DNA of 54,587 nt from a virus (UHGV-0036483); one strand, 5' to 3'; positions 7,368-12,667 are shown, numbered from the stretch's first letter. Translations and numbers: made by a program. The notes: generated from the letters alone by a model not told the origin.

Positions 7368-8089
7368 TGAATCTGGAATCTATTCTTAAATTCCACTTCC
7401 CAAAATCACCGCGTTTATCAGATGAAAGCCGGGGCACGTCACCGGATGCACTTAATACTACGGATGCACTAACTGCCGCAGGTATGGCGCAATCGCGCGT
7501 AGAGCTTGGTTATAGCGCTTTTTTGGGAAAGATGGAACTATCACAAGCCGAAAAACATAAGGCCGTAGTTTTGCTTACAGAGCGTTTAAGGGCTATGGCA
7601 AAAGATTATGAATACGTTATGGAACTGGACGAGGCCAAACGCAATGATCTCATTATTCTTGTTGCCGTTTTCGCGTTTCGGGATTATTGCCAAAGCGCCG
7701 CGACGGAAAAAACTTGTATGGAGTGCGGAGGATATAAATTTACGTTTGACGACTACGGAGAAAAACACCTTTGCAAAAAATGCAAGGGCCACGGGACAGT
7801 TCGCAATCATTGTAAACAATGCAAGGGTCGTGGCGAAGTACCGGATAAAGCAGCCAGTGAAGCGGCGGAAATGCCAGTGTTCAAAACGTGCCAGCATTGC
7901 GGCGGGCGCGGGTACTCGCGTTTCCCTGTAGATCTTGTACGGCAGGCGGTTAATCAGCTTGTTTTCCCGGTAAGCCGATCAACGTGGTGGAAGAAATACC
8001 GTGCTTTCTATGAAGACGCCATTGCCGAATTGTTCAAAGAAGAGGCGCGTGCTGATAACGAAATTAAACGAGTTACACGGGGTGAATGA
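7367..8089 (+). CDS. putative late-gene antiterminator (Q-like) with four CxxCxGxG zinc-finger motifs
   Basis: CMECGG, CKKCKGHG, CKQCKGRG, CQHCGGRG; position directly after ninG-rusA as for Q in lambdoid phages. Confidence 0.5.
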   Translation: MNLESILKFHFPKSPRLSDESRGTSPDALNTTDALTAAGMAQSRVELGYSAFLGKMELSQAEKHKAVVLLTERLRAMAKDYEYVMELDEAKRNDLIILVAVFAFRDYCQSAATEKTCMECGGYKFTFDDYGEKHLCKKCKGHGTVRNHCKQCKGRGEVPDKAASEAAEMPVFKTCQHCGGRGYSRFPVDLVRQAVNQLVFPVSRSTWWKKYRAFYEDAIAELFKEEARADNEIKRVTRGE

Positions 8090-8289
8090 TGGATAAGCTG
8101 GAAATAAACGATAAGTTTGCCGTTATCTTGTTCGAAGATAAAACGGGCGGTGCATGGTGTAAGAAAGTCACTGGTGCTGAAGCGCGTTTAATATTAGGCA
8201 TGGCAAGCGCATTAAATGAAGGTGAATTGCCCGCCATCCCTGTTAAGCCAGTGCATATCTATAAAAGGGGCGAAGATGAAAATAATTAA
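8086..8289 (+). CDS. hypothetical protein (67 aa)
   Basis: ORF track; GGGGTGA RBS. Confidence 0.45.
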   Translation: MMDKLEINDKFAVILFEDKTGGAWCKKVTGAEARLILGMASALNEGELPAIPVKPVHIYKRGEDENN

Positions 8290-8623
8290 CATCGGGTGGT
8301 TATATTGCGAAAACTGCGACGACGACGGCATGGTCGTTAAGACTGAAAAAGGATGTGGCTTCTTTCTGTATCAAGGCGATAAGTTTGTTTGCCCGCGATG
8401 CGGTGGTCGTGGTGAGATAGAAATCGTTAATGATATTGCTACCGCACCTAAGCCATCGCGCATTGTCCTTGATGAAAAAATAAAAATTCATCCTGATTTA
8501 TTACAACAAATTATCGATCACGTATCGGCATCCGCAATCTATAGCGATAACAATTATCAGCGTGAAATGAACGTCAAACGTGCAATTAAGCAGTATTTCG
8601 AGGTTGACGACAATGAAGCCTAA
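8276..8623 (+). CDS. hypothetical zinc-ribbon protein (115 aa)
   Basis: ORF 8216..8623 with ATG at 8276 after AAAGGGG; CENC...CPRCGGRG. Confidence 0.45.
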   Translation: MKIINIGWLYCENCDDDGMVVKTEKGCGFFLYQGDKFVCPRCGGRGEIEIVNDIATAPKPSRIVLDEKIKIHPDLLQQIIDHVSASAIYSDNNYQREMNVKRAIKQYFEVDDNEA

Positions 8624-8885
8624 ATTAAAGGAACATCTATTTGCAAAACTGGTTAACGAATTAACGGAAACGGCCCGCCATTACGCCGGAACACAACAGT
8701 TACGCGGGCGTATATCTTCAGTTGTTAACCGTTACATTGACACCGGATGCCATCGCAAAGGTGAAATGACTATGGATGAGGCCATCAAGCGCCGTTCGGC
8801 TGATTGGTCAGTTAGTAACACTGGATTAACCGGATACATTGAAGGCTATAACGACTGTTTACAGGATCATAGCGATGAAAAGTAG
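8613..8885 (+). CDS. hypothetical protein (90 aa)
   Basis: ORF 8580..8885; first ATG at 8613. Confidence 0.4.
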   Translation: MKPKLKEHLFAKLVNELTETARHYAGTQQLRGRISSVVNRYIDTGCHRKGEMTMDEAIKRRSADWSVSNTGLTGYIEGYNDCLQDHSDEK

Positions 8886-9075
8886 AATGAAACGCATGGT
8901 AAGAGCTTACGACAAGGCTTTGATGGTTTTTGATGACCTGCGACGCAATAAGCGTGAGCGTCGTAAATGGGCGCGTTTATTCGCAAAAGAATGGCACGAA
9001 GACGACGCAACAATCGACTGCCAAAGAGACGCTGACGAATTAGCTGATGATAACGTTTATTATATGATGTGGTGA
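8875..9075 (+). CDS. hypothetical basic protein (66 aa)
   Basis: ORF 8839..9075; ATG at 8875. Confidence 0.4.
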   Translation: MKSRMKRMVRAYDKALMVFDDLRRNKRERRKWARLFAKEWHEDDATIDCQRDADELADDNVYYMMW

Positions 9076-9079
9076 TAAT

Positions 9080-9445
9080 ATGCAAATAATCATTGATTAT
9101 CTTTGTCATGCTGTGAATACGCTTTTCGGTTTTTATCAACAACCATTCCTCAAAGAATGGGATGAAATGCTTAATGACATCATTGATAAAGGGTTAATAG
9201 TTGAAGTAGGCGAGCTAACGATAAAATTCAATTACGAAGGAAAAGAATATGACATATGGGTAGGTAACAGATGGTACGCATACGGGCATATTTATTCAAT
9301 TGGCGGCAAATACATTAAACGTAGCCAGGAGTTCAGGCCGCGATTCCGCACAATGCGCCGCCTGCGTGACCTGCATATGAATATATTTGAAAATCAGGAA
9401 GCGTGTGAACTATTCAAGATCTACGGAGATAAATCATGGAGCTAA
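9080..9445 (+). CDS. hypothetical protein (121 aa)
   Basis: ORF track; GGTGA RBS. Confidence 0.5.
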   Translation: MQIIIDYLCHAVNTLFGFYQQPFLKEWDEMLNDIIDKGLIVEVGELTIKFNYEGKEYDIWVGNRWYAYGHIYSIGGKYIKRSQEFRPRFRTMRRLRDLHMNIFENQEACELFKIYGDKSWS

Positions 9446-9666
9446 AAATCTGGCAGGCTATCGACGTAGTTGATAATGAATTGTCTATGTTCGCCACTAA
9501 CGGGAAACGCGTTGTGATCGCTACATGGACACGTAACCATGATGATATTGCTTTTCGTCGCGCTGCGGCTGAATTGCTTTTCTCTGATGGTGGCTACACG
9601 ATGAACATCGACCAGCTTGCCAGAATGAAAGATGAAAAGCTGGTGGACAGCTACACAACTGCATAA
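9436..9666 (+). CDS. hypothetical protein (76 aa)
   Basis: ORF track; GGAGA RBS. Confidence 0.5.
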   Translation: MELKIWQAIDVVDNELSMFATNGKRVVIATWTRNHDDIAFRRAAAELLFSDGGYTMNIDQLARMKDEKLVDSYTTA

Positions 9667-9671
9667 CGGGG

Positions 9672-11289: not shown

Positions 11290-11291
11290 TT

Positions 11292-11549
11292 ATGGTTGTG
11301 TTCAGGCTATGGCGCGGCGTAAGTCGTACCGATGGCACGTATAGCCGCGTGATTGAAGATGTTAACCGTGGGCGTTTTTATGAACTGGCATACAGGGAGG
11401 CAATGGAGAACACCTATTTTGATGAGTCGATCCCTATGTGGCGGAAAATAGCTGGCGAAATAGCTTTCGTTGCTCGCTACGGTACTTATAAAGATCACAA
11501 CACGCTAACAGATGCAGAACTGGTGGCAATTCTTTACGAAGGGGAATAA
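11292..11549 (+). CDS. hypothetical protein (85 aa)
   Basis: ORF track; RBS present. Confidence 0.5.
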   Translation: MVVFRLWRGVSRTDGTYSRVIEDVNRGRFYELAYREAMENTYFDESIPMWRKIAGEIAFVARYGTYKDHNTLTDAELVAILYEGE

Positions 11550-11552
11550 TCA

Positions 11553-11876
11553 ATGTCTAAATTTATCAGCGTTAAGGTTTTCCGTGGCAATTTTCCAGAA
11601 GATAAAGAAATTGGACAATTCGCAGGTGAACGTGGCGTATGTTTCCGTGTAGCTACTGAAGACGATGCGCACGTTAAATGCTTTCACGTATCTGAACCGC
11701 CTTTTAATGCAGACCATCTTGAAGACCTGAATAGAATTAAAAGCCTTATTTTTGCCTATCTGGCGTTCCCTGGCATAGCTAATGCTGATGTGGGATTGGT
11801 TGGAGCTGAACTAGTGGCAGAATATAAAATGACTGAAGGAGAAGAAGGGGGAATTAAAATTGAGCGCATCAAATAA
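11553..11876 (+). CDS. hypothetical protein (107 aa)
   Basis: ORF track; GAAGGGGA RBS. Confidence 0.5.
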   Translation: MSKFISVKVFRGNFPEDKEIGQFAGERGVCFRVATEDDAHVKCFHVSEPPFNADHLEDLNRIKSLIFAYLAFPGIANADVGLVGAELVAEYKMTEGEEGGIKIERIK

Positions 11877-12114
11877 GGTATACAAAATCAGGTGTAAAGG
11901 CGAATACATTGGCTTTACGATTGGTTGCGAATACATGGGCCACATTGGGTACGGCCCTTTCGGTGAATTAGGGATGAACACGCTGGACGATGACGGCGAC
12001 AGCCGGACGCTTGATCCCTATTCTGATGACTTCGAATACATCCCGCCAGTGACTTACCGCGTAGTTGATGAGTTCCTGGCTGAACATGAGGACGATGAGG
12101 ACGATGATGATTGA
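11860..12114 (+). CDS. hypothetical protein with poly-acidic C-terminus (84 aa, non-ATG start)
   Basis: ORF track; ends EHEDDEDDDD; start codon uncertain. Confidence 0.35.
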   Translation: MSASNKVYKIRCKGEYIGFTIGCEYMGHIGYGPFGELGMNTLDDDGDSRTLDPYSDDFEYIPPVTYRVVDEFLAEHEDDEDDDD

Positions 12115-12307
12115 ATGCCTTATTGCTGTGATTGTTTTGCTTTATATCGCTGGCGCGATCCTGATGTCATGTTTTATTAAGTTTAGCGGTGCTAAACCTG
12201 GTGGCCTTGAGATTCCTTTATGGCCTGTAGTTATGTTTCTTGCTTTCTTCGATGCTACGGTAGAGCAGATCAAGCGAGCCATTAAGGAGCGTAAAAATGG
12301 GAAATAG
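12107..12307 (+). CDS. small membrane protein (66 aa)
   Basis: In-frame ATG at 12107 of ORF 12065..12307; two hydrophobic segments. Confidence 0.4.
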   Translation: MIECLIAVIVLLYIAGAILMSCFIKFSGAKPGGLEIPLWPVVMFLAFFDATVEQIKRAIKERKNGK

Positions 12308-12494
12308 CAACCATCAATATGACGGTGTTTATCAGTCATTGACTTCACGCGCTTATTATCGCCTTGAAGGTGAACAAGTGATGATGCGATTAAGTCAGTT
12401 TGAGAAGTGGCATGAGCCGTTTTTACCTATGACATCTGTGGAGATCATCACGATGTTTAATCACGGATATTGGCGCAAGGTTGGTGAGCTATGA
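12297..12494 (+). CDS. hypothetical protein (65 aa)
   Basis: ORF track; AAGGAG RBS. Confidence 0.5.
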   Translation: MGNSNHQYDGVYQSLTSRAYYRLEGEQVMMRLSQFEKWHEPFLPMTSVEIITMFNHGYWRKVGEL

Positions 12495-12667
12495 ACGAGA
12501 TCGAAGACGGCATCTATTTGCATAATGTATTTGATATTGCTTACTTGCTGAAAGGTGAAAAGGTTTTTGTTATGTCGAGTGAGCGGCCTTTCTGGTCTGG
12601 TGTAAATATGAGCCGTGAACAAATGCAATTATTGCTTGATAATGGCCTGATAAAAAGAAAGTCGTAA
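12491..12667 (+). CDS. hypothetical protein (58 aa)
   Basis: ATG overlaps upstream stop; below ORF-track cutoff. Confidence 0.35.
   Translation: MNEIEDGIYLHNVFDIAYLLKGEKVFVMSSERPFWSGVNMSREQMQLLLDNGLIKRKS

Follow-up and report, generated by a model that had tools for sequence, protein, structure and literature searches.

The stretch of viral DNA UHGV-0036483 (54,587 nucleotides, nt; the whole stretch is referred to below as the window) carries on its + strand, between a Q-like late antiterminator gene (7367-8089) and the lysis cassette (from 12775), a chain of small open reading frames (ORFs) that runs without a break from 8086 to 12667. We consider this block to be probably the mEpimmI phage lineage's own small accessory early-gene array, a nin-like extension of the early-right operon that has been placed after Q.

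The sequence-only reading of the window had described a string of about 19 packed, co-oriented ORFs at this place, and the string stands, with 18 genes of 58-121 amino acids (aa), all on the + strand (o01 to o18, Table 1); their starts were refined from annotated relatives and Shine-Dalgarno-like sequences. Neighbouring ORFs overlap by 1-38 nt at 12 of the 18 junctions in the block and are otherwise separated by gaps of 2-11 nt, the single exception being a 103-nt gap 5′ of o12. The share of the + strand taken up by ORFs of at least 55 aa is 98.8%, whereas 1000 shuffles gave 16.7% on average and 44.8% at most, and a Shine-Dalgarno-like motif of the GGAG or GGGG type lies 5-10 nt 5′ of every start (18/18). 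The ratio of nonsynonymous to synonymous substitution (dN/dS), obtained in pairwise codon comparisons with ten related loci, was 0.03-0.46 in nearly all comparisons of block ORFs; the highest value (0.65) was reached only by the most divergent alleles of o16, and the flanking Q, RusA, holin and lysozyme genes gave 0.01-0.21 in the same comparisons. Because of the low dN/dS and the Shine-Dalgarno-like sequence at each start the block is taken as real coding sequence: all 18 ORFs are genuine protein-coding genes under purifying selection. Their head-to-tail packing together with the Shine-Dalgarno-like sequences suggests that they may be translationally coupled.

The block matches seven deposited phages (mEp021, mEp010, mEp013, mEp044, mEp515, mEp554 and MagusPhagus) with 84-91% nucleotide identity where aligned, as well as prophages in 35 of 5426 complete Escherichia coli genomes, and both the block and its flanks share their order with these seven phages and 35 prophages. 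The closest overall match was E. coli strain 127 (97% coverage, 90.9% identity), and the exact gene combination was present in none of the deposited phages or complete E. coli genomes. Judged by gene order and identity, in a comparison that covered about 5-15 kb of the window, the latter is a new member of the published mEpimmI (mEp021) group and the block is that lineage's own array. The mEpimmI phages have been described as temperate siphophages that are Nus-dependent, have three nut sites and encode an N-like antiterminator (Gp17) as well as a Q-lambda-like protein; in faecal samples from humans they are reported to be no less common than lambdoid phages (Negrete-Mendez et al. 2025, PMC11893012). 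About half of the genes of the group have been classed as 'flexible' in that study, in which the block between Q and the holin gene was not analysed.

Variation in gene content, for which the sequence-only reading had proposed a comparison with related phages, was followed in the window and ten relatives (11 genomes) by tblastn and by clustering of all ORFs lying between Q and holin. The proteins of the flanks are 74-100% identical in aa sequence to those of the ten relatives. The ORFs of the block fall into 24 families, of which six are universal (o06, o07, o08, o09, o10 and the family shared by o17 and o18, each in 11/11 genomes), eight occur in 9-10 genomes and ten are sporadic. The array is as small as 8 ORFs in 1.9 kb in mEp021 and as large as 28 ORFs in 7.2 kb in E. 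coli Ecol_244. Ten of the 18 genes of the window are absent from mEp021 and a partly different set from mEp013, and 12 of the 18 are lacking in mEp021, in mEp013 or in both; since these two are plaque-forming isolates (PMC11893012), these parts of the block appear to be dispensable. Deeply divergent alleles (45-72% identity) were found for o04, o09, o12, o14, o16 and o18, and genes with such alleles often have a dS of 0.5-1.8 as compared with 0.2-0.5 in the flanks. The o17/o18 family (phrog_15318; 58-70 aa) is represented by 1-6 paralogues per genome belonging to several subtypes, some of them located mid-block. Block genes recur in the same order in the group phages and prophages, with gain, loss, allele swap and duplication outside the universal families. 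Taken as a whole, the array is specific to its lineage and conserved only in part, with flexible margins; it fits neither a slot open to any cargo nor a module that is core throughout.

The earlier description of the block as an accessory region is partly borne out, in that its ORFs are real, its content varies between 8 and 28 ORFs and 12 of the 18 genes are absent from mEp021 or mEp013. The same reading would have been abandoned if the ORFs had turned out to be conserved core genes of known function, and one half of this was found, six families being present in every relative and none having a known function. It is possible, but clearly less probable than an accessory array, that the universal subset (o06-o10 and the o17/o18 family) represents core machinery, acting in the timing of the late switch or lysis or as virion-carried DNA- or RNA-binding proteins, and that only the ORFs flanking it are accessory. 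These families have been retained even in the minimal array of mEp021, o07 is under the strongest constraint in the block, and the o09 homologue of mEp021, gp41, has been identified by mass spectrometry in virions purified on CsCl, with conservation in 48/48 genomes of the group (PMC11893012).

Many relatives have an extra ORF of about 100 aa between the homologues of o03 and o04 (3012-3311 in locus L003, 2309-2617 in L008 and 1977-2276 in L009), which is absent from the window. Its PGAP name, 'RNA-binding protein' or 'ASCH domain-containing protein', makes it the sole named gene in these arrays, and o04, considered as its possible kin, showed no similarity to it.

The transcriptional placement of the array was judged from what lies at its two ends. 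The pre-holin spacer (12668-12774, 107 bp) is the only sizeable non-coding stretch besides the mid-block gap described below. Its last 85 bp (12690-12774) have a mean identity of 96.5% with 74 of the 85 columns invariant in the 11 genomes, whichever ORF precedes them, and so rank at the nucleotide level above the holin coding sequence (94.4%) and far above the adjoining o18 (63%). The spacer reads putative -35 TTGTAG (12676-12681), 17 nt, putative -10 TAAAAT (12699-12704), -35-like TTACCT (12706-12711), -10-like AACAAT (12712-12717) with GCG (to 12720), then a predicted strong terminator hairpin and, at the 3′ end, GGAGG before the ATG of holin. The order of the elements is the same, and their spacing nearly the same, as in lambda PR′ (TAAATT-TTGACT-C-AACGATGGG). 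These elements of lambda PR′ act as the -10 box and as the -35-like and -10-like parts of a sigma-dependent pause element (see also PMC9388147). DNA matches of the spacer were obtained only within the mEpimmI group when lambdoid PR′ regions were looked for. The hairpin is annotated as a terminator in the records of mEp021 (TERM_5), mEp010, mEp013 and mEp044; a terminator 't5', which may be the same as TERM_5, is listed among those experimentally demonstrated (PMC11893012).

Directly at Q no such arrangement was found, the candidate element lying 4.6 kb downstream. The stop codon of Q overlaps the start of o01, the gene 3′ of Q varies (o06 in mEp021, o01 elsewhere), no promoter-like site was found on the + strand in 6977-9174, and synonymous sites vary as much in the last 50 codons of Q as in the rest of the gene, which leaves no hidden conserved element at its 3′ end. 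With moderate confidence we place the putative PR′, pause element and tR′ directly before holin. Because the conserved -10, the pause-like element and the strong terminator all lie just upstream of holin, the block most likely ends the early-right operon. Under the control of Gp17, the N-like antitermination system that has been reported for the group together with its nut sites (PMC11893012), transcription coming from the early-right promoter would pass NinG, RusA and Q, run through the block and stop at the terminator; the 107-bp spacer would be the real late switch, at which Q produced from the upstream gene would act to turn on holin and the later genes. Tight packing, mosaic content and natural deletions, as in nin-type arrays, were all observed in the block, and its membership in the early operon is presumed from sequence.

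The sequence-only reading had likened the position of the block to that of Stx and other cargo in lambdoid phages, and this was not upheld, the conserved promoter-like, pause and terminator element being located downstream of the block. A corresponding arrangement, in which PR′ would lie at or in the 3′ end of Q, the block would be co-transcribed with the lysis genes under Q control and the hairpin at 12732-12756 would be the last of several terminators overridden by Q, seems improbable to us. PR′ comes immediately after Q in every characterised lambdoid phage (PMC9388147), and the terminator-like hairpins found in the block at 9696 and 10915 could be passed by Q-modified polymerase; the overlap of Q with o01, the changing gene after Q, the lack of a promoter-like site around the end of Q, the ordinary variability of its last synonymous sites and the presence of the only near-invariant non-coding element 3′ of the block all speak against it.

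The early-gene array seems to be further subdivided. The mid-block gap (10887-10989) holds a CRP-type palindrome and a terminator-like hairpin with TTTTGTTATATATAAG behind it; TTTTGTTATATATAAG includes an extended -10-like sequence TGtTATATA (10950-10958). CRP-type sites with at most one mismatch number 8 in the window as against 1.95 expected. The mid-block element is present in 7 of 10 relatives, with the hairpin and -10-like part almost invariant (the -10-like segment is invariant in 6 of these 7), and differences in the hairpin are one-sided and keep G-U pairs in the + strand RNA. The palindrome is conserved in 3 relatives, and its right half is degenerate in 4. Such a hairpin with a promoter-like element suggests a junction of terminator and promoter, from which o12-o18 could be transcribed on their own. 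The element at 10897-10962 would mark the border between a left module (o01-o11) and a right module (o12-o18) of the array. Six relatives (L002 at 6606-6731, L004, L005, L006, L008 and L010) have, 3′ of the mid-block element and 5′ of the o12 homologue, an ORF of 41-46 aa (MNANAKYPAWVFELYARYFE...) with a GC-rich hairpin (GGGGCCGGATGGCCCC) behind it; it is absent from the window, L003 and L009.

The second perfect CRP-type palindrome of the window, TGTGATGCGGATCACA, lies at 5851-5866, with CCATTTTGTATACTT (-35 TTGTTA, -10 TATACT) 31 nt downstream. The 31-nt spacing to an CCATTTTGT-TATA motif is equal for both palindromes (second copy CCATTTTGTATAC; stretch from palindrome to motif 5851-5911), and the centre of each is some 60 bp 5′ of the predicted start, as in class I CRP-dependent promoters. 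Within 5851-5940 this palindrome and promoter-like unit is followed by a boxA-like sequence GCTCTTTAA and a small hairpin, and a terminator-like hairpin (5747-5764) precedes it; the segment is probably the nutR2 region of the group and looks like a promoter feeding a nut site.

The repetition of this unit, the perfect TGTGA-N6-TCACA palindrome ahead of TGtTATATA and the near-invariance of the -10-like segment could also be taken to mean that o12-o18 form a separate moron-like unit with a CRP-activated promoter at about 10950-10966 and a terminator at 12732, possibly expressed from the prophage at high cAMP. We give this little chance, as the right half of the palindrome is degenerate in 4 of the 7 relatives with the element, the whole element is absent from 3 genomes, and the -35 region lies inside a stable hairpin more like a terminator. 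The right-hand module does have the promoter-like, CRP-like element upstream and a terminator downstream, yet most of its genes are found in 8-10 of 10 relatives. The last alternative, that the block is a non-coding spacer whose ORFs are open by chance or are decayed pseudogenes, as their very small size and the want of any database function might suggest, is already refuted by the dN/dS of every ORF, and the Shine-Dalgarno-like sequence at each start, a gene order kept across 45 related phages and prophages, an ORF coverage far exceeding the shuffles and the mass spectrometric detection of the mEp021 homologue of one product all argue against it.

The sequence-only reading had recognised no function in any of the ORFs, and our searches agree with it. 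Scans of all 18 against Pfam and NCBIfam gave nothing over threshold and a PADLOC scan gave zero matches; PHROGs matches were obtained for 15 of the 18, all labelled unknown function. A phmmer search of PDB with o02, o05, o07, o08, o10, o12, o14 and o15 gave nothing at E<0.01, a PDB search with one family profile gave no match, AlphaFold models of o05 and o09 matched no known fold, and an Rfam scan of 5500-14500 found nothing significant. No likeness was found to known defence (PADLOC) or solved anti-defence (PDB) proteins, no dedicated anti-defence library having been searched. More tentatively than for the operon assignment, most of the block products may act on the host cell or on competing elements (takeover, defence evasion, exclusion) rather than in replication or assembly, because plaque-forming isolates naturally lack 12 of the 18 genes and some single genes are shared with unrelated virulent phages; the sharing of o04, o08 and o05 with unrelated phages is circumstantial and fits host-directed accessory functions. 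An anti-defence role in particular is a guess. We rate as rather unlikely a reading in which the expandable array of 2-7 kb that has come between the Q gene and its site of action constitutes a host-directed arsenal (anti-defence, exclusion, takeover), including the tandem-duplicating family of 58-70 aa (1-6 copies), a virion-packaged o09 and a CRP-responsive right module expressible from the prophage.

Several observations weigh against the block as an accessory early-gene array ending at a late switch. The -35 hexamer is a weak one, with a different sequence in 3 of 10 relatives, the terminator would begin only about 20 nt past the predicted start, much closer than in lambda, and the promoter was assigned from sequence layout and conservation. 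As no ORF resembles a known host-takeover, defence or anti-defence protein, the functional class of the block is a guess; and the six universal families together with the o09 homologue detected in virions fit a core role better than an accessory one.

Table 1 Features of the block and its surroundings in the window
Feature	Position	Strand	Basis or remark
Q-lambda-type late antiterminator gene, 240 aa	7367-8089	+	PF03589 E=4e-30; PDB 7UBM E=4e-39
o01, 67 aa, phrog_35000 (unknown function)	8086-8289	+	dN/dS 0.06-0.16; absent from mEp021, mEp044
o02, 115 aa, four-Cys zinc-ribbon protein (CENC...CPRCGGRG)	8276-8623	+	present in 5/10 relatives
o03, 90 aa, phrog_29262 (unknown function)	8613-8885	+	PHROG match, relatives, dN/dS
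o04, 66 aa, phrog_8758, N-terminus basic, C-terminus acidic	8875-9075	+	divergent alleles, 61-70% identity
o05, 121 aa, phrog_16975, widespread uncharacterised family	9080-9445	+	
o06, 76 aa, in all relatives; mEp021 gp38	9436-9666	+	
o07, 77 aa, in all relatives; mEp021 gp39	9678-9911	+	most constrained, dN/dS 0.03-0.09
Terminator-like hairpin and T run within o07 coding sequence	9696-9722	+	-16.7 kcal/mol, z=-5.3
o08, 75 aa, phrog_5009, in all relatives; mEp021 gp40	9908-10135	+	
o09, 82 aa, in all relatives; homologue of mEp021 gp41	10140-10388	+	
o10, 83 aa, phrog_38609, in all relatives; mEp021 gp42	10351-10602	+	38-nt overlap with o09
o11, 94 aa, sporadic, 2/10 relatives	10602-10886	+	
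Perfect CRP-type palindrome TGTGA-N6-TCACA, TGTGATCTGTATCACA	10897-10912		the window has one other perfect site
19-pair hairpin followed by TTTTGTTATATATAAG, terminator-like	10915-10962	+	-18.7 kcal/mol, z=-5.4
o12, 99 aa, mEp021 gp43, first gene of right-hand module	10990-11289	+	alleles 55-72% identity
o13, 85 aa, phrog_32200; mEp021 gp44	11292-11549	+	
o14, 107 aa, phrog_23107	11553-11876	+	dN/dS relatively high, 0.26-0.46
o15, 84 aa, acidic, poly-Asp/Glu tail	11860-12114	+	pI 4.1, C-terminus EHEDDEDDDD
o16, 66 aa, phrog_10061, small membrane protein	12107-12307	+	alleles diverge to 45% identity
o17, 65 aa, multicopy phrog_15318 family	12297-12494	+	
o18, 58 aa, second phrog_15318 paralogue; mEp021 gp45	12491-12667	+	
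Putative late promoter PR′ and pause element	12676-12720	+	sequence layout and conservation
Strong intrinsic terminator, GC-rich hairpin (12732-12750) and T run, putative tR′	12732-12756	+	predicted
Lysis cassette: holin 12775-12975 (phrog_20), lysozyme 12976-13467, Rz-like 13455-13925	12775-13925	+	

Among the individual genes (Table 1), both flanks named in the sequence-only reading were recovered, Q through PF03589 (104 bits against a cut-off of 26.7) and the structure of Q-lambda (7UBM), the lysis cassette through phrog_20 for holin and through annotated relatives, from which the lysozyme and Rz genes take their names (74-98% aa identity). The three ORFs it had singled out, the zinc-ribbon protein o02, the poly-acidic-tailed o15 and the small membrane protein o16, are as described when judged by motif, pI and hydropathy, respectively. 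The alignment of Q with 7UBM falls into two blocks (residues 1-114 and 148-238), between which residues ~115-147 form a Cys-rich insertion of about 33 aa relative to Q-lambda, with extra CxxC motifs; with the insertion included, Q has three CxxCxGxG-like units. The zinc-ribbon 'arm' of Q-lambda is the part that contacts the Q-binding DNA element, and the insertion may represent an enlarged form of it.

The cysteines of o02 (C11, C14, C39 and C42) form a CxxC...CxxC arrangement with one CxxCxGxG unit, and its homologues, all named hypothetical, occur only in E. coli and in phage contigs of the mEpimmI group with at least 68% identity. Assignment of o02 to the DnaJ_CXXCXGXG zinc fingers (PF00684) was rejected at 18.6 bits, under the Pfam gathering threshold of 32.7, as was its derivation from the zinc module of Q, to which the similarity is marginal and at motif level only (E=0.003). 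The o04 gene has about 72% DNA identity to virulent siphophages of the Sasha/Sergei/PDP46 type. The o05 family is large, with 199 cluster representatives, all unnamed, and extends to the Edwardsiella phages GF-2 and Edno5. Homologues of o08 with about 41% identity are encoded by some 119 large virulent E. coli myophages of 130-140 kb which, going by the names of the records, are of the rV5/Vequintavirinae type. The hairpin within o07 corresponds to the site at which the ARNold terminator T9 is annotated in the mEp554 record.

Homologues of o09 are restricted to E. coli and the mEpimmI phage group and are all named hypothetical; a RegA-like translational repressor has been suggested for mEp021 gp41 (PMC11893012), and no similarity of fold to RegA was found. 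Homologues of o15, again all named hypothetical, occur only in E. coli and phage contigs with at least 67% identity, and a PDB sequence search with o15 gave no match. The N-terminal segment of o16 is strongly hydrophobic (Kyte-Doolittle 2.76) and a second hydrophobic stretch is present.

Inside the Rz-like gene, in another frame, lies an Rz1-like ORF (13645-13857) that has a lipobox-like LSGCAS and a tail rich in Pro and, by its sequence features, completes a putative lambda-style spanin pair. Just past the lysis cassette, 14204-14788 encodes a 194-aa homologue of mEp021 gp49 with an HExxH-like 'HECAH' and an Ala/Glu/Lys-rich tail. Elsewhere in the window, 44000-46000 and 49000-50000 have a low GC content (0.39-0.42) and reversed GC skew, and may be leftward-transcribed lysogeny or exclusion genes or foreign inserts.

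As a small-ORF accessory array typical of one published phage group the block is an ordinary kind of feature, and it is also the largest run of flexible uncharacterised genes next to the late switch in mEpimmI phages. Its natural variants of 8-28 genes provide a ready-made deletion series for studies of host range, defence evasion and lysis timing. A late promoter that truly lay 4.6 kb away from Q would show, for this group, that a Q gene can be parted from the site at which it acts, which would matter for the annotation of late regulation in prophages. Four details deserve to be followed up: Q and its target appear to be uncoupled, the 58-70 aa family is multicopy, the o09 family is virion-associated and the CRP-type elements occur as a pair.

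When set beside the regions between Q and holin of the other mEpimmI phages, the window agrees in its flanks (NinG, RusA, a 60-aa ORF and Q before the block, and holin, lysozyme and Rz after it) and in the gene order inside the block, and differs in its exact gene combination and in the divergent alleles of o04, o12 and o18 (55-72%). The nin region of lambda and P22 consists of small delayed-early ORFs between the replication genes and Q. The array of the window would resemble it as a set of co-oriented, overlapping, mostly dispensable and mosaic small ORFs under N-type antitermination in the early-right operon, but it lies downstream rather than upstream of Q, is longer (4.6 kb, and up to about 7 kb in relatives) and has no gene in common with lambda nin, the NinF, NinG and RusA homologues of the window being located upstream of Q. 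The cargo of Stx phages is located downstream of PR′-tR′ and depends on Q. The block shares with such cargo and with morons the presence of extra genes between Q and lysis whose content varies among relatives, whereas its promoter-terminator element is downstream, with no ORF between this element and holin, it contains no toxin, tRNA or virulence genes, and only its right-hand module has a possible promoter of its own. In comparison with the canonical lambdoid Q late cassette (PMC9388147), the window encodes a homologue of Q-lambda and has, at the level of sequence, candidate -10, -35-like, -10-like and terminator elements in the lambda order (TAAAAT, TTACCT, AACAAT GCG as against TAAATT, TTGACT, C, AACGAT GGG), but Q has the extra Cys-rich insertion, only about 20 nt separate the predicted start from the terminator where the canonical cassette has about 190, and the candidate PR′ is 4.6 kb away from Q (1.9-7.2 kb in relatives) where the canonical one is adjacent.

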